Shown here one piece after another: positions 5,492 through 41,253 of a stretch of DNA of 64,000 nucleotides; positions within the stretch are counted from its first letter, which is position 1; every line of letters starts with the position of its first letter. The DNA comes from a virus, in the IMG/VR virus record IMGVR_UViG_3300003375_000013, positions 32,001 through 96,000 of that record. One strand, written 5' to 3'. A program made the position numbers and the translations under genes. The notes below the pieces were generated by a model, which saw only the letters and a program-made list of their open reading frames with translations, searched no databases and had not been told where the DNA came from.

Positions 5492-6542
5492 ATATTTTAC
5501 CAGCTGGGCTAAGTGGAATTGTATCTACTAATTTAAGCACAGCTGGTTTACAATGCTTACCTAAACTTATTAAGAAGTTCTTAATACTATCTTCATCACA
5601 TGTACCAACGTATAAACACTTAACACGATCAGTTCCAAATACAACACATTCTTTCATTCCGGAAATATTTTGTAATAGTTGTCGTTCTATACTTACCGGA
5701 TTGATTTTAGAACCCTTGACATTAATTTGATCTCTACTTCGACCTAATATACGATAATAGCCCATTTCATCTTGCTCAGCTAGGTCTCCTGTATCATACC
5801 AATCACCATGGCAAATATTAAAACCCTTGATCATTAAATGACCATTTTCAATCTTAGCTTCTATGCCATCAGGCAGTCCTACTGTGCCAACTCGTTGTGG
5901 ACCAGCAAGTGGATTAGTGAAACAGTGACTCATTGCTTCTGTCATACCAAATGCTTCTACGATAGGCACATTAAACTTTGTACTTAACTTGTGATACAAA
6001 TCGGGTGGCATAGGAGCACTAGCAGATCGTATAAATCTTAAATTGTCAAAATCTAATTCAGTGATAACCCTTAATATATCAGGAATGGCAGTTATAAAAG
6101 TTGGCTTAGTGGAGGGAAAGGTTTTAATGTCTTTCATAGTAACGTAGGTAGTTTCACATCCTGCTAACTGAGTTGCCCAGTAAAAACCCTGCCCGTGAGC
6201 ATGCCATAGACTCATGATGCTAGTATATCTATCGTTAGCTGTCAAGTTGTATGATCTAACAATAGTAGCAGCCATGTTGTTTAGCTGTGCTTGTGTGAAA
6301 CTGCAAAACTTACTATCTCCTGTCGTGCCTGACGTATACCACAATACTCGTTCGTTAGGATAATCATTGCCGTTTCTAACTTTTTCTTGATCTTTAGTAA
6401 TGTATAAACTCCAGTCAGAGTTATCTAACAGATATCTATTCCTAGCTTCAGGAGCATTAGGATTTATAATCATGATAGAATGATCTTTTAACTGAGGAAT
6501 AAAGTGTTGTGGATTATCAATACATAGCACGGCACGTTTCAT
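5463..6542 (-). CDS. AMP-forming acyl-CoA synthetase (ANL superfamily), N-terminally short
   Basis: YTSGTTGDSK P-loop, EAFGMTE, YDTGDL, GRSRDQINVKGSKINP, terminal SPAGKI. Confidence 0.92.
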   Translation of the reverse strand: MKRAVLCIDNPQHFIPQLKDHSIMIINPNAPEARNRYLLDNSDWSLYITKDQEKVRNGNDYPNERVLWYTSGTTGDSKFCSFTQAQLNNMAATIVRSYNLTANDRYTSIMSLWHAHGQGFYWATQLAGCETTYVTMKDIKTFPSTKPTFITAIPDILRVITELDFDNLRFIRSASAPMPPDLYHKLSTKFNVPIVEAFGMTEAMSHCFTNPLAGPQRVGTVGLPDGIEAKIENGHLMIKGFNICHGDWYDTGDLAEQDEMGYYRILGRSRDQINVKGSKINPVSIERQLLQNISGMKECVVFGTDRVKCLYVGTCDEDSIKNFLISLGKHCKPAVLKLVDTIPLSPAGKISRALLDSCH

Positions 6543-6600
6543 AGGAATATTTATATACCAAAATGCTTGTCACATTCTTTTTGATATAGTACAATACATT

Positions 6601-26135: not shown

Positions 26136-26936
26136 ATGATAGATAACATCTTTATTCCCACTCTTGGAAGATCTGATAACCAGATAACATACAATAATTT
26201 GTGTGATAAATGGAAGAGTAAAACTATTCTTGTCGTCCAAGAGCACGAAGCGCATCTATACAAAGATTACAACATTCAAGTTCTTCCATCTCATATAAAA
26301 AGCATAGCTCCTACAAGAGAATGGATAGCACAGCAGAATATTGGTAAAATTTACGGTGTATTAGATGATGATCTAAAGTTTTACCGCACCCGAATGAAAG
26401 GCGAGACTTTTGATAAATCAAAAAGAAAGATGACAGACGAAGATTTTGATGAGTTAGAGAACACTATATGTTCGTGGCTGAATGATGATATCGCAGTATG
26501 TGGATTATCAAATGCTGTTAGACCACCAAATATCGTAGACGAATATGAAGATATCAAGTCTGTGAGTCAATTATTCTTTTTTGACGGTAGAAAGATACCA
26601 GTGTATGATATAAGCTGGAATGATTGTATCGTTACTGAAGACACTCATGTGTTATTGCAGTTGACAAAGAAAGGTTTTAAAAGTAGAATATCAAATAGAT
26701 TCAGATATGAGTCAGCACCTCCAGCGATGGCAGGTGGATGTTCAACATTCAGAACTATAGAATTACAGAACGAAGCTAACTTAACCTTGTTTAAATTACA
26801 TCCTGGTTTAGTTAGATTAGTGGAAAAAGAAGTAACAAGAGGTGGGTTCGCAGGTAAAACTGCGATCCATGCGGTCATACAGTGGAAAAAGGCATACCAA
26901 ACAAGTATGCTAAATAATCTTTATGATTCTGTATAA
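26136..26936 (+). CDS. Second TAGT/GREB1-like glycosyltransferase
   Basis: IFIPTLGRS, IAPTREWI, VLDDDLKF, TEDTHVLLQL, GGCS. Confidence 0.7.
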   Translation: MIDNIFIPTLGRSDNQITYNNLCDKWKSKTILVVQEHEAHLYKDYNIQVLPSHIKSIAPTREWIAQQNIGKIYGVLDDDLKFYRTRMKGETFDKSKRKMTDEDFDELENTICSWLNDDIAVCGLSNAVRPPNIVDEYEDIKSVSQLFFFDGRKIPVYDISWNDCIVTEDTHVLLQLTKKGFKSRISNRFRYESAPPAMAGGCSTFRTIELQNEANLTLFKLHPGLVRLVEKEVTRGGFAGKTAIHAVIQWKKAYQTSMLNNLYDSV

Positions 26937-27040
26937 ATTTGTTTTATTACAACAATTTTTACCAAAATGATTGATTATATACGCTTATTTGTGTATAATT
27001 TTTATATTGACTAAATAACTTTATAACTTCTAAAAAGAAG

Positions 27041-27069
27041 TTGACAATTTAATTTTTAAGCAGTACAAT
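27041..27069 (+). promoter_or_regulatory. sigma70-type promoter of the leader peptide / tRNA-array head
   Basis: TTGACA-17-TACAAT, 8 nt before ATG 27078. Confidence 0.8.
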
Positions 27070-27077
27070 TACATATA

Positions 27078-27236
27078 ATGAAAAACATAAAACTTTCCAT
27101 ATCGTATCAGTTGCCTCAGACATCAGCGTCATGCTGGAGTCCGGTAGCAGCCTTACGCTCAGAAAGTCATAATGGATTTAATATGATTGAAACAGGCAAA
27201 GATTATAGTAGGGTTCGACGAGGATGGGATGTTTAA
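27078..27236 (+). CDS. Putative leader peptide (52 aa, all 20 amino acids)
   Basis: MKNIKLSISYQLPQTSASCWSPVAALRSESHNGFNMIETGKDYSRVRRGWDV; lies between a promoter and a terminator. Confidence 0.55.
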   Translation: MKNIKLSISYQLPQTSASCWSPVAALRSESHNGFNMIETGKDYSRVRRGWDV

Positions 27237-27263
27237 GCAGTAGCTAGCATCGTAAACTTTGAG

Positions 27264-27295
27264 AACCCTGAACTAGAACTTCAGGGTTTTTTTTA
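27264..27295 (+). terminator. Intrinsic terminator, candidate attenuator
   Basis: AACCCTGAA-CTAGAAC-TTCAGGGTT followed by a long T run; the 5' arm can alternatively pair with 27206-27216. Confidence 0.85.
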
Positions 27296-27401
27296 TTTGG
27301 CAGTAGTGTAGTAGGAAACGAGATCCTAGCCCGCACTTAAAACATGGGCAAATGGGCGGACTAGATGATGGATTTCCTCTTGTGGGATGAAAAACTCTAG
27401 C

Positions 27402-27470
27402 GTATTAAAGCATATTGGGATCGGCTCTAACGAGACTTCATAAGATGAGGAACTAAGTATGCTTTAATAC
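27402..27470 (+). ncRNA. Conserved-helix RNA cassette F
   Basis: GTATTAAAGCATATT/AGTATGCTTTAATAC helix enclosing two hairpins. Confidence 0.6.
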
Positions 27471-27494
27471 CGACATTCGCAAGAGTGTCGTAAT

Positions 27495-27578
27495 CGCGAG
27501 GTGGCAGAGTGGTTGAATGCGGGGGACTGCAAATCCCTTTCGAAAGACACGTAGGTTCGAATCCTATCCTCGCGTCCA
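27495..27578 (+). tRNA. tRNA-Cys(GCA) with expanded variable region
   Basis: CGCGAGG/CCTCGCG, U73, CCA, loop CTGCAAA. Confidence 0.92.
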
Positions 27579-27594
27579 TATTTTTAAATAGTAG

Positions 27595-27623
27595 TTGACA
27601 ATTAAAACAATCTCATCTATAAT
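27595..27623 (+). promoter_or_regulatory. sigma70-type promoter
   Basis: TTGACA-17-TATAAT. Confidence 0.85.
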
Positions 27624-27710
27624 ATCTGTATAGTAAGTAATTCAGTTGAAAGCAACTTACATCACTGTAGGATTACTACAGTATAAGTACTGTCGTTAAA
27701 AGGATGCAGT

Positions 27711-27833
27711 ATGAAAAATTATGTTGTAGAATATCAAACAGAACAAGAAGCGGTTAAAGAATTTCACCGTACATCAATTAAGTTCTTATGTGATTTAATT
27801 GCGTTAGGTTTTATAATTTATTTGTTTCATTAG
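27711..27833 (+). CDS. Small peptide (40 aa) with hydrophobic C-terminus
   Basis: MKNYVVEYQT...LIALGFIIYLFH; SD AAGGA within a hairpin. Confidence 0.45.
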   Translation: MKNYVVEYQTEQEAVKEFHRTSIKFLCDLIALGFIIYLFH

Positions 27834-28038
27834 AATCCCGGCGTCCCCAGTCGTTATTAATAGGGCGTGAATTAACTCCACGATAAAGTTAAGGGTGCTT
27901 ACGATCTACCTTAGAGTCCCTCTGTCGGGAGCCTGAAAAAATCGTAGGGTGTTGCTGAACATGCCCATACTCATAGAGAATAATCAGACGGACAGGGTAG
28001 ACAACTCATGTAGGGGCTAGAGGGATTTAGTAGCCTAC

Positions 28039-28152
28039 ACCATATTGAAGTACATTCAAAGGCGAAGCGCAAGCCGAGTGGTGGACATAGCGTTGCTCCT
28101 AGAAGAGCAATGTTGACAGGTTCGAATCCTGTGGAGTGTATTTCAATATGGT
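28039..28152 (+). ncRNA. Conserved-helix RNA cassette A (head contains a tRNA-like T-arm)
   Basis: 19-bp ACCATATTGAAGTACATTC/GAGTGTATTTCAATATGGT with two G-U pairs; head has ACAGG-TTCGAAT-CCTGT. Confidence 0.7.
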
Positions 28153-28354
28153 TTGTGTGCTACCGCAAGTAGACCCGCCCAGAATAATACGGATCGCTAT
28201 TCGGTGTTGTTCATGAGAAAGCAAGGTAAGGCTGTCCCAAGAGTAAAGAGAGCGTGAGGGGATAGACACAAATCATAAAATCGGCCCATGTTCCCACCGT
28301 GCGGCAACCGAGGTTAAATAAAGCCAGGACGAATGCTGTCGTTAACGGTGGGGT

Positions 28355-28430
28355 TCATATTGAAGTACATTAAGGGTGGCATAAGTTTGATAAGCCAAGA
28401 AATAATCCTTCATAGTGTATTTCAATATGG
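28355..28430 (+). ncRNA. Conserved-helix RNA cassette B
   Basis: 18-bp TCATATTGAAGTACATTA/TAGTGTATTTCAATATGG; 40-nt head. Confidence 0.7.
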
Positions 28431-28539
28431 TTAGTACACAGTGAAAAACGCCGACCCTGCCCGACTAGTCATCGGGAAAGTCGGGGTCTAGTAGCTACGA
28501 ATCCCGACAATAGGCTTTTGACCGAGCCGACGATAGGGA

Positions 28540-28616
28540 ACCATATTGAAACACATTAACCTCGCCGCGAGTGCGAGTTAGGAAATGATTGCCTGTTTAG
28601 TGTGTTTCAATATGGT
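28540..28616 (+). ncRNA. Conserved-helix RNA cassette C
   Basis: 20-bp ACCATATTGAAACACATTAA/TTAGTGTGTTTCAATATGGT; two-hairpin head. Confidence 0.7.
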
Positions 28617-28663
28617 AGCCCTGTTCAAGTGAAATGGTCACACGCCCTTTCTTGAATGGACTG

Positions 28664-28772
28664 TTACCATATTGAAGTGTATTAAACGCCAACAAGAAGA
28701 AGGCGGTCCAGCGTCAACTGGGCGAAGTTGCGTTTGACGGTGCAAAGGATTTAATATATTTCAATATGGTAA
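28664..28772 (+). ncRNA. Conserved-helix RNA cassette D
   Basis: 23-bp TTACCATATTGAAGTGTATTAAA/TTTAATATATTTCAATATGGTAA; 63-nt head. Confidence 0.7.
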
Positions 28773-28782
28773 TAAAGAATTA

Positions 28783-28860
28783 GGCCAATGGGACTGCATG
28801 GTGTGGTCGCCCGCCTGTCACGCGGGATATCGATGGGATCGTTACCCATATTGGTCGCCA
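28783..28860 (+). tRNA. tRNA-Asp(GTC)
   Basis: GGCCAAT/ATTGGTC, G73, CCCGC-CTGTCAC-GCGGG; T-loop ATCGTTA. Confidence 0.9.
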
Positions 28861-28867
28861 AAGTTAT

Positions 28868-28945
28868 CCTCGTTGAGATCCAGTGTTATGGTCGGGTGTT
28901 TTACTACACTTTAAGCTGTGGTTAGAATCCACAGGACGAGGGCCA
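28868..28945 (+). tRNA. Atypical tRNA-like gene, anticodon unassignable (6- or 8-nt loop)
   Basis: CCTCGTT/GACGAGG, G73, CCA, T-arm CTGTGG-TTAGAAT-CCACAG; anticodon arm GGTGT-TTTACT-ACACT. Confidence 0.6.
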
Positions 28946-28948
28946 AGT

Positions 28949-29120
28949 TTTGTAAGTGTTAGCAAAAGAGAAAGCCGCAGAGATGCAAACTTGCGGTAAG
29001 TTGGGCCTAATTAGCCTAGTAGCAAACAAGTATCTTCCAAGTAACGTACCCTCGACAGTCAGGTACCCTAGTTTTATGACTCGAATGGTTTCAATAGTGA
29101 GCGGTGAAACTACTTACAAA
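28949..29120 (+). ncRNA. Unassigned multi-hairpin structured RNA
   Basis: Closing helix TTTGTAAGT/ACTTACAAA enclosing CCGCA/TGCGG, GTACC/GGTAC and GTTTCA/TGAAAC hairpins. Confidence 0.5.
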
Positions 29121-29168
29121 TTCATTTTTATTCTTGCTACACCCTAATCTTTATAGTAAATAATAACA

Positions 29169-30641
29169 ATGTATCATGGAATAATCTTATGCGGTAGTAG
29201 GAATGACAGCGCAGGCAGAAATATCGCAGGCTATCGTCTACGCACATCTGCAGAGAAATTCAATTATGATAACTTAGTTATTGATTGCGCTACAGCAATG
29301 ACCCAAGCTGAGTTAGAACTATTACTAGATAATGTCATTACTACTAAGACATTATTTTTAGGTGTCAGTACAGTTTGGTTAGATCGTCCACACAATGCCC
29401 ATGGTGATATTGAATGGATTAACAAAGATTTTTTTGATAGAATTCGTGCTAAGTACCCACAGATAAAAATTGTCGCAGGCGGCAATGGTGTACTAAGAAT
29501 GCCTGGTGCTCGTGATATATATAACTCAGCAGACTGGCACATTAGTGGATTTAGTGATGATAGTTTTCCTAGATTTCTAATGTTATTAGAAGGCAAGTCA
29601 GGACATCAGTTAAAGTATTTTATTGACAGCAATGGTAAAAAAACTGTAGATAGTAATAAGTTTCACACTATCGGAAATCCTGATGACATTGAAACTGTAC
29701 TAAAAGCAGATGATGATTTTTATAGTCATCAACCAATACCATTAGAAGTCAGCAGAGGTTGTATTTTTAGATGTGCGTTTTGTAATCATCCCTTTCAAGG
29801 TGCTAAAGATTACGATTCATACATGAGAACACCTACTAGTCTAAGTAACGAACTTCGCCGTAATTATGAATTGTTTGGCACTACTAGATATTCGTTGATG
29901 GATGATACATTCAATGATAGTATAGAGAAGTTAAACAGACTTGAACAAGCGATAGAATTAGCAAAGATACCAAATTTTGAATTTCAATGCTACATTAAAC
30001 CAGAGTTATTAGTAACTAAGCCCGAGATGATTCCGCAGTTGTTGCGAATGGGGCTTACTGGTGGTTTCGTTGGTATAGAAAGTCTTAGCAATCAAGCTAG
30101 ACGAGCAATGAATAAGGGAATGAATATTGATAAGGTATTACATTCTCTTACAGAGCTAACTAGCACTGGCCAAGTTAAATTAAATGCTGGATTTATAGTA
30201 GGATTGCCAGGTGATACAATAGATGATATGTATAAGACATTTGATTTTTGTAAAGCTAATCCTAAATTATTTAGATCGTGGAATTTCAGTAGCCTTGGAA
30301 TTTATAGTTATAATGATGTTGAAAAAGAATCAACATTAATAAGTCCATTAGAGCGAGATCCAGAAAAATATGGATATACAATTATTAAAAAGCCAGGCGA
30401 AAATAGTTTTTGGAAAAATGAATTTATGACATCCGTTGAATCACTTAATACAGCAGGCAAATTACTAAAACAATCGTCTGAAATTATAAAATGCGGTGGA
30501 TGGGCAATTAGTTCAGCATGGCATAATAATGTATCAGATTATGATATTGATAATAAAACAAGATTAGAATTAAATTTAGAATTAAGTGGTAGACAACTTG
30601 TTCGTGATCGTGCTATAATTACGCTTAAGAAGTTTACTTAG
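29169..30641 (+). CDS. Radical SAM protein with N-terminal B12-binding-like domain
   Basis: EVSRGCIFRCAFC, MDDTFND, VGIES, GFIVGLPGD; late promoter 6 nt upstream. Confidence 0.88.
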   Translation: MYHGIILCGSRNDSAGRNIAGYRLRTSAEKFNYDNLVIDCATAMTQAELELLLDNVITTKTLFLGVSTVWLDRPHNAHGDIEWINKDFFDRIRAKYPQIKIVAGGNGVLRMPGARDIYNSADWHISGFSDDSFPRFLMLLEGKSGHQLKYFIDSNGKKTVDSNKFHTIGNPDDIETVLKADDDFYSHQPIPLEVSRGCIFRCAFCNHPFQGAKDYDSYMRTPTSLSNELRRNYELFGTTRYSLMDDTFNDSIEKLNRLEQAIELAKIPNFEFQCYIKPELLVTKPEMIPQLLRMGLTGGFVGIESLSNQARRAMNKGMNIDKVLHSLTELTSTGQVKLNAGFIVGLPGDTIDDMYKTFDFCKANPKLFRSWNFSSLGIYSYNDVEKESTLISPLERDPEKYGYTIIKKPGENSFWKNEFMTSVESLNTAGKLLKQSSEIIKCGGWAISSAWHNNVSDYDIDNKTRLELNLELSGRQLVRDRAIITLKKFT

Positions 30642-30692: not shown

Positions 30693-30725
30693 TACAACTG
30701 TAAACGATAATACATAAATAAAGTT

Positions 30726-31463
30726 ATGGATTATTATTTACACTACGAAAAGTTAATACAGCGAGCAAAATCTAGAATATTAGATGATAAGAAGGAAACA
30801 CATCATGTTATTCCAAGATGTATGGGCGGCACTGATGATAAATCTAATCTAGTAGAGTTAACTCCAGAAGAGCATTATACCGCACATCTTCTATTAACTA
30901 GGATTTATCCCACTAATAGAAAATTAATCAATGCTGCGGCAATGATGATTCCTGGTAGACAGTCTAATAAATTATACGGATGGCTTCGCAGAAGATTTCA
31001 AGATAGACAAAGCGAACTACAAACAGGAGACGGGAATTCTCAGTTTGGAACCATGTGGATATTTAATTTAGAGTTAGAAGAATGTAAAAAAGTACCAAAG
31101 TCTAATCATACACCAAATGGCTGGCAAAAAGGTAGAGTAGTAAATTTTGTATCCTATAAAAATGAACTAATAAAGAAAGAACAGAAAAATATTCTGTACT
31201 CCCAAAGAAAAGAATTTTTGTTAGAATATCAGCAACAAGATAAGTTTAAAAAACAACAAGAACGAGAAATAACAAAAAGAGAATATAAAGAATATATTTT
31301 AGGATTATATGAGGAATTTAAGGCAGGCAACTATTATTCTATTAGTGAATTTCATAAATTAGCCAATGTTTCAGTTTCAAGAATGACCTTGAGTAACTAT
31401 TGGAGAAAATGGGTGCCAGAATATAAAGAAAATTCCAAAGAAGCTAAAAGATACAGGATGTGA
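30726..31463 (+). CDS. HNH homing endonuclease
   Basis: ETHHVIPRCMGGTDDKSNLVELTPEEHYTAH; GNSQFGTMWI-type repeat. Confidence 0.9.
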   Translation: MDYYLHYEKLIQRAKSRILDDKKETHHVIPRCMGGTDDKSNLVELTPEEHYTAHLLLTRIYPTNRKLINAAAMMIPGRQSNKLYGWLRRRFQDRQSELQTGDGNSQFGTMWIFNLELEECKKVPKSNHTPNGWQKGRVVNFVSYKNELIKKEQKNILYSQRKEFLLEYQQQDKFKKQQEREITKREYKEYILGLYEEFKAGNYYSISEFHKLANVSVSRMTLSNYWRKWVPEYKENSKEAKRYRM

Positions 31464-32242: not shown

Positions 32243-32256
32243 GTATAAATACTATT

Positions 32257-32763
32257 ATGAAAATCATAGAACTATTAACAGAATCTACAAGCCAGTTTGA
32301 TCCATTATTAATTGAATTTTGGAAATCTAGTAGCCCAGCAGATTTGAAATATTTCTTTGTTCAAAACAACTGCTATGGGGCATCGCAGTCTTTTATGGAA
32401 TTTCTTGAAAATAAAGGAATTCACACAGCAGAAATTGTACCAATTGGCCGTGTACGCAATGGTAAAAAAACTGAAGGATGGTTTCATGCAGATGTTCCAG
32501 ATACAACATTAGATGCATTTACTAAGGAAGATATAGCTGCATGTAAAAGTCAAGGTTTAGATCCTCGTAAAAAAGCAGATCGAATTGCATATATTACCAA
32601 CAACAATCTTGAAGACGAGTTCAAATGGATTCCCCATAGTTGGGTAGAAGTTCGTGGACAAATTTTAGATCCCAGCGGATTTTACATTGACGGTAAGAGC
32701 GGTCAGTTCGACCATTTAGTACACAACAAATCAAATTTATCACAACGATATCAATATTTTTAA
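32257..32763 (+). CDS. Hypothetical protein with a transglutaminase-like Cys-His-Asp arrangement
   Basis: MKIIELLTES start 5 nt after TATAAATA; NNCYGAS...PHSWVEV....LDPS. The ORF-track start lies inside a tRNA. Confidence 0.6.
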   Translation: MKIIELLTESTSQFDPLLIEFWKSSSPADLKYFFVQNNCYGASQSFMEFLENKGIHTAEIVPIGRVRNGKKTEGWFHADVPDTTLDAFTKEDIAACKSQGLDPRKKADRIAYITNNNLEDEFKWIPHSWVEVRGQILDPSGFYIDGKSGQFDHLVHNKSNLSQRYQYF

Positions 32764-33332: not shown

Positions 33333-34004
33333 AAATGAAGGATCACGGCCTTTATGAAATCCTTCCGGAATTGGATCACAAACAGGATGCTTACGACTTA
33401 AAGTTCCGTTTGTGATCCAGCAAAATTTTCCAATAGATTTTTTACGGCCTTTATCCATAGCATCTAATACAGATTGTGGTCTCTTTTTTCCGGCCATTGG
33501 ATTAGGTTTTCCTGCGCTAACTTGTTCTTGTCGTATTTTACTTAAGTGTTCGGAGCGAATCTGTTTTAATTCTTTTGCTTTTTCATTTCCGTAAATTTCT
33601 TCATAAGTTTTGCCTTTAAGAATTCCTTTTCTGCCTTTGGAAATATTAGTGCGAGATTCAGGAGAAGTTGAACTAAAACGATTATGACCAAGTGTTTTAT
33701 CAAAATAATGTTTGTTTAAACATAATGGATTTTTAATATTTTCTTTAATTAAATCTTGTTCAAACCAATAAGCATCATCACTAGCTGTTTCAGTGTAAAA
33801 TTCAGCAACAACCGACCATATAAAGTCATTAAAGTTGTCTTTTACTAGCTGTGCAGATGAACATGTGTTATAATGAAATCCTAAATCTAAATGAGATTGA
33901 ATTTTATTTTTTTCACGATATCCGATATAAAATTGACCGGTAACTTTATGAATGCCAATATAGACATAAGGATAATTTTTATTTTTATATAAATGATTTT
34001 TCAT
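33312..34004 (-). CDS. GIY-YIG-type homing endonuclease
   Basis: YPYVYIGIHKVTGQFYIGYR, FEQDLI, LNKH, NPMAGK; start probably ATG 34004, 5 nt after TAAATA. Confidence 0.82.
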   Translation of the reverse strand: MKNHLYKNKNYPYVYIGIHKVTGQFYIGYREKNKIQSHLDLGFHYNTCSSAQLVKDNFNDFIWSVVAEFYTETASDDAYWFEQDLIKENIKNPLCLNKHYFDKTLGHNRFSSTSPESRTNISKGRKGILKGKTYEEIYGNEKAKELKQIRSEHLSKIRQEQVSAGKPNPMAGKKRPQSVLDAMDKGRKKSIGKFCWITNGTLSRKHPVCDPIPEGFHKGRDPSFLRISNF

Positions 34005-34075
34005 ATAAGTATTTATACATCTAGACATTAATCAGAGAGAAAAATGAGAGTAACAACTAAAAAGGATGTAAAATT

Positions 34076-38922: not shown

Positions 38923-38947
38923 AATAACATCGTACATAAATAAAGTA

Positions 38948-39916
38948 ATGCGATTATATGAAATACAACAAAATATTGAAGAATCTATCAACTTAACTAG
39001 ATATCTGCCCGAGGTTGAAGATGCCATTAAAAAAGGTATTTTAGCTTCCATGGATTCGCTTATAAATGTAAAAATAACACCTAATGTACAAGCTAACATT
39101 GATGAAACTGGAAAATTTGGAGCAGTTAGATCACGAGTTAAATTAGTATCTAAAATGAAAAAACATTGTTCTGCTAATCTGCAAAACGTTGCCAGTAGTA
39201 TTATGAACATGCCAAACATTATTGTTTATTTTGATAAAATGAAGAAAAATAATGGAGAATGGTATAGCGACAATTCTTCTATAGCGATAAACATCAAATA
39301 TCTTAATGATATTAAAAATAGAATATGGGCCAATTGGTCAGCACAAATAATTAAATATAATGAAGGCGACACACTTGATTATTTAGAAACTGCCGAATCA
39401 ATTATAGATGAATTTAAAAGATATACTTTTACTCCCGCGGTAAGCGCAGTTGTGACTAATATTGCCGGTGTGTTTATTCATGAAATGGTACATGCCATGC
39501 AAGACAAAGCTGCTGCTGCAAAAGGAATGAATACAGATAAGGCATATCGTAGTTACCTAACAAATAAAGAAACGTTTGATAAATCAATAGAAGATTACAA
39601 AAAAGCTGGGTTTACGGAGAAAGAAGCATATAGATTTTATAGAGGTAGTCCTCAAGAAATTGCAGCGTTTGCTAATCAAGAAGCAGCAAAATTTATTAAA
39701 TCTAAAAAATTAGATCAACCAGGTGTTCAAGCAACACCACAAAGGTTGTCTGAATTACAGACTCAGTTGAAATATTTGAATGATATTTTTAAAGATACCA
39801 ACAATACAACAGAAATCAAAATTATACGACGATACACAACATTAATGTATAAAGCAGTCATGGATTATGTTGAAAGAAAAAATGAGTTAGCACAAGCAAA
39901 GCAAAACACACGATAA
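38948..39916 (+). CDS. Hypothetical protein with an HExxH metallopeptidase motif
   Basis: MRLYEIQ start 5 nt after TAAATA; FIHEMVHAMQ, EIAAFA. The ORF-track start lies inside a tRNA. Confidence 0.65.
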   Translation: MRLYEIQQNIEESINLTRYLPEVEDAIKKGILASMDSLINVKITPNVQANIDETGKFGAVRSRVKLVSKMKKHCSANLQNVASSIMNMPNIIVYFDKMKKNNGEWYSDNSSIAINIKYLNDIKNRIWANWSAQIIKYNEGDTLDYLETAESIIDEFKRYTFTPAVSAVVTNIAGVFIHEMVHAMQDKAAAAKGMNTDKAYRSYLTNKETFDKSIEDYKKAGFTEKEAYRFYRGSPQEIAAFANQEAAKFIKSKKLDQPGVQATPQRLSELQTQLKYLNDIFKDTNNTTEIKIIRRYTTLMYKAVMDYVERKNELAQAKQNTR

Positions 39917-40011
39917 TACATAAGTCAATACTATAAGCAACCAAAAGTAATATTTTGGTTGCTTTTTTATTTGGCTTATGTTATAATATATTTTTATATA
40001 AAGGAGAATAA

Positions 40012-40618: not shown

Positions 40619-40632
40619 TCATAAATAAAATT

Positions 40633-41253
40633 ATGATTATAACGTGCGGGCCCGTTAGTAACCAACGTACCCTTAAATTAAAACTTCCCGAAGAACGAAC
40701 TAAAATAGCAGTCCTTATCAGTGGTGGCATAGATAGTGCTATACTGTATTACTTAATGTTGCTGGAAAATAAAAACACAGGATATAGGCATGACATAAGA
40801 CCTATATCTATAATGCGACAAGAAGGATCTGAATACTTTAGTAAGTTGGTAGTGGCAAACATGAATGAGAAGTTTAATCTAATCAAACAGGATGCTATTA
40901 TAGTTGGAAATCCTTCTTTGCCAGAAGATCAGCAGGTTAAGTCAGGTGTAAATCATGCTTATAACTTGGGGTTTGATCTAACATACTGTGGCGTGATTGA
41001 ACAACAGCCTGAACACATGATAGGTTGGGTTCAACCCGAAGCTAAAGAAACTAAACGATTCAAAACACCGCTAAAAGATCTAAACAAAATACATATAATA
41101 GATCTTGTTATACAATGTAAACAAGAGGACTTGTTTTACATTACCCATACTTGCAACAAATTTAAAGTAGGTCGTTGCCACAAATGTAATGGGTGTAACG
41201 AACGAGCATGGGGATTTTCACAACTAGGATTACCAGATCCTGGTACTATATAA
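40633..41253 (+). CDS. QueC-like PP-loop ATPase (adenine nucleotide alpha-hydrolase)
   Basis: SGGIDS; C-terminal HTC...CHKCNGCNER zinc site. Confidence 0.7.
   Translation: MIITCGPVSNQRTLKLKLPEERTKIAVLISGGIDSAILYYLMLLENKNTGYRHDIRPISIMRQEGSEYFSKLVVANMNEKFNLIKQDAIIVGNPSLPEDQQVKSGVNHAYNLGFDLTYCGVIEQQPEHMIGWVQPEAKETKRFKTPLKDLNKIHIIDLVIQCKQEDLFYITHTCNKFKVGRCHKCNGCNERAWGFSQLGLPDPGTI

Follow-up and report, generated by a model that had tools for sequence, protein, structure and literature searches.

What controls transcription into the block of stable RNA genes that a large uncultured phage carries? Large phages carry many tRNA genes, and little is understood of how they time the expression of these genes or adjust it to demand. 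The locus studied here lies at the head of such a block, within a stretch of 64,000 nucleotides of a viral record that we refer to throughout as the window. An earlier note on this DNA had described a promoter, a short open reading frame (ORF) containing every amino acid and an intrinsic terminator, and had proposed that together they form an attenuator that senses the whole tRNA pool. We compared the locus with its relatives and asked which parts of this proposal hold.

The phage, its leader module and the relatives

The source of the window is a 177-kb IMG/VR virus record with an estimated completeness of about half. It derives from an uncultured T4-like lake phage, whose placement among the T4-like viruses rests on a predicted T4-type major capsid protein, Gp23, encoded outside the window (G000:C1:159278-160288; Pfam Gp23, E 3.6e-98). 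The window has a GC content of 37% and holds 24 tRNA genes and a permuted tmRNA, as detected by ARAGORN and Rfam scans; at the gathering thresholds of Rfam 15, tRNAs and the tmRNA were the only matches. At 28783-28860 ARAGORN called a tRNA-Asp for which the Rfam tRNA model was silent at the gathering threshold and at E values up to 10. Cultured phage genomes gave no DNA match beyond tRNA, none being close, and tblastn searches of cultured phages with the leader peptide and the neighboring radical SAM protein returned no match. No paralogue of the leader ORF was found in its own 177-kb record, itself about half complete.

Relatives were collected by protein searches, contig look-ups and pattern scans. 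The module was found in 56 loci from related uncultured phages, which represent 25 distinct modules and 18 distinct peptides (lowest identity to the window peptide 43%), and all relatives found are phage or metagenome contigs bearing the same module. Homologues from the protein searches are all 52 to 54 residues long. The comparison of orthologous loci that the earlier note had suggested thus yields a constant ORF length (52 to 54 codons in the 18 peptides), and the distance from the stop codon to the terminator arm is 25 to 27 nt in the 25 distinct modules. The genes on either side differ among loci, while the module itself is constant.

Several observations concern these flanks. A second TAGT glycosyltransferase gene (window 26136-26936) is absent from two relatives, L010 and L011, and in other relatives an AAA NTPase gene or a 216-residue ORF lies upstream of the module. 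On the other side, a minus-strand pair of HNH and Methyltransf_21 genes lies 3' of tRNA-Cys in L012, L016, L018 and L019. By gene content, the site looks like a hot spot of gene gain and loss. Directly upstream of the module in distant relatives (L025 1564-2385; a 135-kb contig) are genes matching the TctC, Porin_4 and OmpA families, which represent either unusual phage cargo or a sign that these contigs are not purely viral. On the 778-nt contig L026, positions 368-727 encode a 119-residue protein of which the first 36 residues are the leader peptide and the rest is unrelated; this fusion is either a rearrangement or an assembly chimera.

Table 1. Features of the leader module and its surroundings; positions are those of the window unless a relative is named
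Feature	Position	Strand	Remarks
Upstream promoter-like site P1, TTGATT-17-TATAAT	26971..26999	+	10/12 match; presumed function
Promoter P2, TTGACA-17-TACAAT	27041..27069	+	11/12 sigma70-type match; ATG 8 nt further 3'
Leader ORF, 52 codons	27078..27236	+	No Shine-Dalgarno sequence; 20 different amino acids, 34 different codons
Segment 2, putative antiterminator 5' strand	27206..27216	+	Inside codons 43-47
Nested helices within the putative antiterminator	27220..27259	+	Include a hairpin over the stop codon, 27228-27251
Intrinsic terminator	27261..27294	+	12-pair stem 27261-27291; 3' arm overlaps eight-T run 27287-27294
Segment 3, terminator 5' arm and start of loop	27263..27275	+	Alternative partner of segment 2
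Structured non-coding RNA region	27296..27494	+	No sigma70-like promoter of its own; conserved in all relatives
tRNA-Cys (GCA)	27495..27578	+	First tRNA past the putative switch
Next perfect promoter	27595..27623	+	12/12; would end the stretch dependent on read-through alone
ATAAATA-N5-ATG sites	30714-30728, 32245-32259, 38936-38950, 40621-40635	+	Long ORFs without Shine-Dalgarno sequence
ATAAATA-N5-ATG sites	6540-6554, 34002-34016	-	Motif match
ORF2, 54-61 codons, directly past the terminator	L038 1740-1907; L023 424-588; L024 ~877-1047; L025 2735-2917

Promoters and coding signature of the leader ORF

The earlier note had called the sequence at 27041-27069 a consensus sigma70 promoter. Its position holds, but with 11 of 12 bases matching, P2 is near-consensus rather than full consensus. 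The ORF does start 8 nt past the promoter, as had been described, with the ATG at 27078 lying 8 nt after the -10 element. A TTGACA-17-TAnAAT promoter followed by a gap of 7 to 9 nt to the ATG is present in 25 of the 25 distinct modules. A search of the window for exactly this layout gives a single occurrence, and 100 shuffles give none. No Shine-Dalgarno sequence precedes the leader ORF, although many other genes in the window have one. As the ATG always lies 7 to 9 nt past the -10 element and is not preceded by a Shine-Dalgarno sequence, the leader mRNA is probably leaderless, with a predicted transcription start at or within 1 to 3 nt of the AUG at 27078.

Such starts look usual in this phage, judging from its gene starts. 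The T4-late-promoter-like motif ATAAATA-N5-ATG occurs six times in the window against 0.76 expected occurrences, and the four plus-strand sites include the start of an HNH gene at 30726. This suggests that the sites mark a class of leaderless late mRNAs in a T4-like phage.

The upstream promoter-like site P1 is kept in the alignment of relatives, scoring 11/12 in L038, and is followed, up to P2, by an A/T-rich block that is nearly invariant among them (P1 and block together, window 26971-27040). P1 and P2 with this block recall stable-RNA operons, in which promoters stand in tandem and have UP elements. If transcription began at P1, the RNA would carry the leader ORF behind a 70-nt leader without a Shine-Dalgarno sequence.

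We confirmed that the 52-codon ORF contains every amino acid (20 of 20), encoded by 34 distinct codons. Its codon and amino-acid make-up, which had been singled out as unusual, is so only mildly when each feature is taken singly (3 to 12%). Random stretches of 52 codons were either generated from the codon usage of the genome or excised from its genes; 3 to 6% of them have all 20 amino acids, 7 to 12% have 34 or more distinct codons, and about 6% have a codon usage as poor as that of the leader ORF.

Evidence for translation came from a permutation test in which the window sequence was held fixed and the variable alignment columns were permuted among positions with the same base. The leader frame shows 28 amino-acid changes where the permutations average 39 (P=0.0003), while the same test gave P values of about 0.8 in frames +1 and +2. 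No stop codon arises in the leader frame in any version (P=0.03), and pairwise dN/dS ranges from 0.15 to 0.9. As substitutions avoid amino-acid change only in the leader frame, the ORF is probably translated. A non-coding small RNA as the sole reading of the locus, for which the missing Shine-Dalgarno sequence might speak, was rejected on this frame-specific signature.

Constraint is distributed unevenly along the ORF. Codons 12-28 show 15 synonymous against 10 amino-acid states, with Leu26 encoded by four synonymous codons among relatives and Val23, Ala24 and Pro13 by three each. In codons 43-52 there are nine amino-acid against three synonymous states, yet the partners of the terminator arm stay the same or change in a compensatory way. 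From these patterns, the middle of the ORF appears to be constrained as a peptide and its end as RNA. The conserved peptide at codons 12-28 is more than a pure ribosome track would need, and the leader product may therefore act as a small protein. Searches of Pfam, PHROGs and the ESM Atlas with the leader peptide gave no match. AlphaFold, run on a nine-sequence alignment, returned a pLDDT of 58 and a pTM of 0.17, values that are uninformative and are not evidence of disorder.

Terminator, competing folds and the genes beyond

An intrinsic terminator does follow the ORF, as the earlier note had said in placing it at 27264-27295 and 27 nt past the stop. The stem, however, starts at 27261 and thus 24 nt past the stop codon, the figure of 27 being counted from 27264. 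Alone, the hairpin folds at -14.2 kcal/mol; a scan of 38 kb gave just one other convincing terminator on the plus strand. Its stem shows compensatory substitutions between lineages and exists in at least five versions, while the loop motif ACUA, which pairs with codons 43-44, is kept in most relatives despite the stem changes. On this comparative evidence, we take the terminator to be real.

The claimed complementarity between codons 43-47 and the terminator 5' arm was also confirmed, with 27206-27216 pairing with 27263-27269 and 27272-27275. At -13.4 kcal/mol, this duplex of segments 2 and 3 gives the terminator arm its best partner in the whole transcript; it was equaled in 4 of 300 dinucleotide shuffles of the upstream RNA. 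Loss of the pairing in relatives had been named as a possible refutation of the proposal, and we found it to be conserved, with compensatory change: across 24 distinct 3' regions, the pairs of the antiterminator core are canonical in 164 of 168 cells. One core pair occurs as U-A (11), U-G (6) or C-G (7) and never as C-A; on the ORF side, the variable base is a silent one, at the third position of the Val46 codon. L016 has Ile instead of Ser at codon 44 as well as an altered terminator loop, and with both changes the helix is again uninterrupted. In the stop-codon hairpin of L014, TAA has become TGA with its partner base changed too (pair 160-170). The covariation of the antiterminator rests on the one covarying pair and the L016 changes. 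Tested on eight sequences, it did not exceed column shuffles (194/500), because sequence variation is low.

Folding models give a similar picture. The fold of the transcript just before the terminator 3' arm is the antiterminator in all 25 versions; at full length, the antiterminator is the minimum in 15 of them and lies within 4.6 kcal/mol of it in the others. When the last codons and the stop region were forced unpaired to mimic a ribosome, the terminator formed in each of the eight versions tested. In these models, the antiterminator excludes the terminator, and its formation would depend on the position of the ribosome. A control terminator at 39935 also has a 5' arm that pairs upstream in its prefix fold, so that prefix folds alone are weak evidence. 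The energy gained on forming the terminator is 12 kcal/mol at this control, compared with about 2 to 6 kcal/mol at the leader.

We decided against a trp-like 1:2 helix. A candidate (27096-27108 with 27212-27224) does appear in the consensus fold of close relatives, but every pair of it is invariant in those relatives, and the helix is apparently not kept in L023. No conserved anti-antiterminator helix was found across the relatives compared.

What lies beyond the terminator would depend on read-through. No sigma70-like promoter matching at 9/12 or better was found in the structured RNA region, and none was present between the terminator and tRNA-Cys in the window or in L014. Since no sigma70-like promoter precedes 27595, the structured RNA and tRNA-Cys would be made only by read-through of the terminator, barring an unrecognized promoter type. 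The perfect promoter at 27595 keeps this exclusively gated stretch short (27296-27594), which agrees with the caveat in the earlier note that further promoters prevent the leader from being the sole route to tRNA expression. In L024 and L038, the structured RNA has a promoter of its own; in L038 tRNA genes then follow. In the 13 loci scanned with ARAGORN whose DNA extends far enough, tRNA-Cys is found 3' of the module in every one.

In four distant relatives, a small gene without a promoter of its own, ORF2, begins about 15 to 20 nt past the terminator. It has a Shine-Dalgarno sequence in L023, L025 and L038, with none clear in L024, and its product starts with MTIDYS in three of the four loci and with MTIDYT in L024. 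ORF2 has no Pfam, PHROG or ESM Atlas match and is absent from the record of the window.

Some further features of this region were recorded. A structured RNA starting near GGAAACGAG (window 27300-27420) is conserved 3' of the module even in the most distant relatives. Rfam gave no match to the whiB7 leader within 26900-29200 and no credible match over 27036-27494 at E values up to 10. The tRNA-Cys has a long variable region and a length of 84 nt in both the window and L013, compared with 77 to 78 nt in the other relatives; its BLAST matches (81 to 89% identity) are mostly tRNA-Tyr genes of cultured phages, and the base preceding CCA is T, which fits Cys identity. A T4 MotA-box-like TGCTTTA at 27460-27466 was discarded as a promoter, as it has no -10 element at the right distance and lies in an RNA helix. 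We likewise set aside the idea that the invariant Cys19 codon is linked to the tRNA-Cys gene that follows, as statistics have no hold on one codon.

Taken together, these data incline us, if modestly, toward a ribosome-mediated transcription attenuator before the structured RNA and tRNA-Cys. This part of the earlier proposal is supported by the coding signature, the covarying terminator, the conserved competing antiterminator and the lack of an intervening promoter; its classical wiring did not hold up. We infer the following course of events. P2 would start a leaderless mRNA at or very near the AUG, and ribosomes would translate its 52 codons. The last ten codons would supply the 5' strand of a three-tier hairpin (27206-27275) whose base helix takes up the terminator 5' arm. 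If no ribosome is at the end of the ORF while RNA polymerase transcribes 27263-27294, the antiterminator would form first and block the terminator, and read-through would proceed into 27296-27578 or, in distant relatives, into the small Shine-Dalgarno-led gene. A leading ribosome in step with the polymerase would instead cover segment 2 and the stop region, leaving the terminator arm free, so that transcription ends at about 27294. Output would rise whenever initiation or decoding is slow.

The spacing can be compared with measurements on other terminators: the ribosome does not block those situated at least 25 to 30 nt beyond a stop codon, and termination is maximal beyond 30 bp (PMC4824070). 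By analogy, across the gap of about 25 nt a ribosome at the stop codon would largely no longer block the hairpin and would still separate segments 2 and 3. A translated leader that gates a tRNA and structured-RNA module by ribosome progress would constitute a simple feedback loop. The open-access literature searched yielded no account of phage tRNA genes controlled by a leader peptide. Being short, self-contained and equipped with a sigma70-type promoter, the element is directly testable without culturing the host.

Readings of the leader and comparison with known systems

If the leader is an attenuator, does its composition matter? All 20 amino acids are present in 17 of the 18 peptides, the exception being L025, which has no Gln. 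Cys19, Trp20, Met36 and Tyr43 are invariant, and His is always present, at position 5, 6, 10, 31 or 48 depending on the lineage. We simulated the history of the 17 close variants by drawing random one-step replacements while keeping the observed variable sites and lineages; all 20 amino acids were retained in all of them in 7% of runs (P=0.07). The feature was noticed post hoc, having first been picked after the whole window was read. Selection for all 20 amino acids is thus only suggestive, and the claim of a general tRNA-pool sensor stands as far as retention in 17 of 18 peptides goes but not as regards selection, given a P value of about 0.07 and the missing Gln of L025. It is conceivable, though we doubt it, that with such a composition the switch responds to whichever tRNA is in short supply or cleaved. 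Slightly more doubtful still is the fuller idea that selection keeps the leader as a pan-amino-acid test message, by which shortage, uncharging or cleavage of any tRNA would turn on the phage's own RNA and tRNA module. If true, the virus would encode its own feedback sensor for translation capacity, triggered for example by a host anticodon nuclease during infection, and the role of the conserved peptide core would be to set the speed of the ribosome or to act in trans.

The main alternative, which we judge unlikely but still deserving of weight, is that the locus is simply a small early protein gene whose terminator leaks. Here the 52-residue product would be the point, for example as a host-takeover factor, and the 3' hairpin would stabilize or process the mRNA, the downstream RNAs coming from a constant partial read-through independent of translation. 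This reading draws chiefly on the conserved peptide core: the peptide is under purifying selection, most strongly in codons 12-28, the ORF is constant in length, and strong tandem promoters lie upstream. Partial internal terminators are, moreover, common in operons. Against it, the amino acids of codons 43-52 vary freely while the bases pairing with the terminator arm are preserved or compensated, and the loop motif that pairs with codons 43-44 is conserved while the stem changes; the near-equal energy of the two folds in 25 versions is also left unexplained, and the peptide has neither a confident predicted fold nor a family match. An accidental meeting of promoter, open frame and terminator, with coincidental complementarity, would fit the modest probability of each composition feature alone (3 to 12%) and the choice of the element after the whole window had been read. 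It is very unlikely on the comparative data, as none of the elements is lost in any of the 25 distinct versions, even where peptide identity falls to 43%, and both covariation and a coding signature are present.

Two other readings, both improbable, shift the emphasis to the RNA. The terminated transcript of about 215 nt could be a trans-acting or dual-function small RNA, a role compatible with attenuation and for which rnTrpL of Sinorhizobium, an attenuator RNA with such functions, provides a precedent (PMC6614838). The RNA is structured (z = -2.9) with conserved hairpins, and a promoter and a terminator flank the transcript in an RNA-rich region, but RNA structure cannot produce the frame-specific coding signature, no target or seed region is known, and there is no Rfam match. 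A shade less probable is a switch set by something other than the ribosome, such as a phage or host RNA-binding protein, a small molecule or temperature, with the ORF incidental. Two nearly isoenergetic, mutually exclusive folds are indeed conserved, and many structured RNAs, which might serve as binding sites for factors, lie past the terminator. The antiterminator strand, however, always lies within the last ten codons, the fixed stop-to-terminator spacing of 25 to 27 nt fits the ribosome as effector, and no riboswitch or protein-binding family was matched.

How does the attenuator that we favor compare with known ones? Like the trpL, hisL, leuL, thrL, pheL and ilv leaders (PMC1183508), it combines a probably translated leader and a terminator with an antiterminator that uses the terminator 5' arm, and in both cases a ribosome near the stop codon prevents the antiterminator, although on the phage side this is a prediction. 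In contrast to the classical leaders, the phage ORF has no run of any codon, most of its amino acids occurring one to three times, and it is longer (52 codons compared with 14 to 32). In trp-type leaders, untranslated RNA terminates via the 1:2 helix, whereas the phage leader has no conserved 1:2 helix and is predicted to read through. Classical attenuators regulate amino-acid operons; the genes that the phage element would regulate are RNAs.

Leaderless attenuator ORFs have precedents in trpL/rnTrpL of Sinorhizobium meliloti (PMC6614838) and in mycobacterial polycysteine leaderless sORFs, which are reported to act as attenuators of operonic gene expression (bioRxiv 10.1101/834739). Both resemble the probable arrangement of the phage leader, in that the transcript opens directly with the sensing ORF, has no Shine-Dalgarno sequence and controls downstream genes. 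They are chromosomal, however, and respond to one amino acid (Trp or Cys) through codon runs that the phage ORF does not have. The leaders of vmlR in Bacillus subtilis (PMC9226507) and of streptococcal msrD (bioRxiv 10.1101/2021.11.29.470318) are likewise related in logic: a ribosome stalled on a short leader ORF reportedly shifts the RNA from terminator to antiterminator. General translation stress would be reported through a leader ORF in all three, as we propose for the phage; unlike the phage leader, the vmlR and msrD leaders, as described there, are short, are stalled by drugs at particular sites and control ABCF proteins.

By analogy, the closest known system is the whiB7 (wblC) uORF attenuator of mycobacteria and other actinobacteria, a likeness that is functional only, as no sequence relationship to the actinobacterial whiB7 leader was found in Rfam or in the searches for relatives. 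Efficient translation of the whiB7 uORF leads to termination, and loss of its start codon to read-through and higher expression (PMC10274678). The Mycobacterium smegmatis uORF encodes 19 of the 20 amino acids; the amino acids sensed are those encoded, and a uORF stripped of its Trp or its His codons no longer responds to starvation for the amino acid concerned (PMC10274678). Both elements have a fairly long uORF of broad amino-acid composition with an intrinsic terminator 3' of it, and the predicted read-through of an untranslated phage leader would follow the same logic. They differ in that whiB7 is bacterial and controls a transcription factor (drug resistance, alanine supply) in a positive feedback loop. 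The whiB7 uORF is also Ala-rich and widely variable in sequence, while the phage peptide is conserved and its ORF probably leaderless, and only the phage element precedes a structured RNA and a tRNA gene or, in distant relatives, a small ORF. With an attenuator of this kind in a phage, whiB7-type logic would reach beyond the stress genes of bacteria to stable-RNA genes of viruses.
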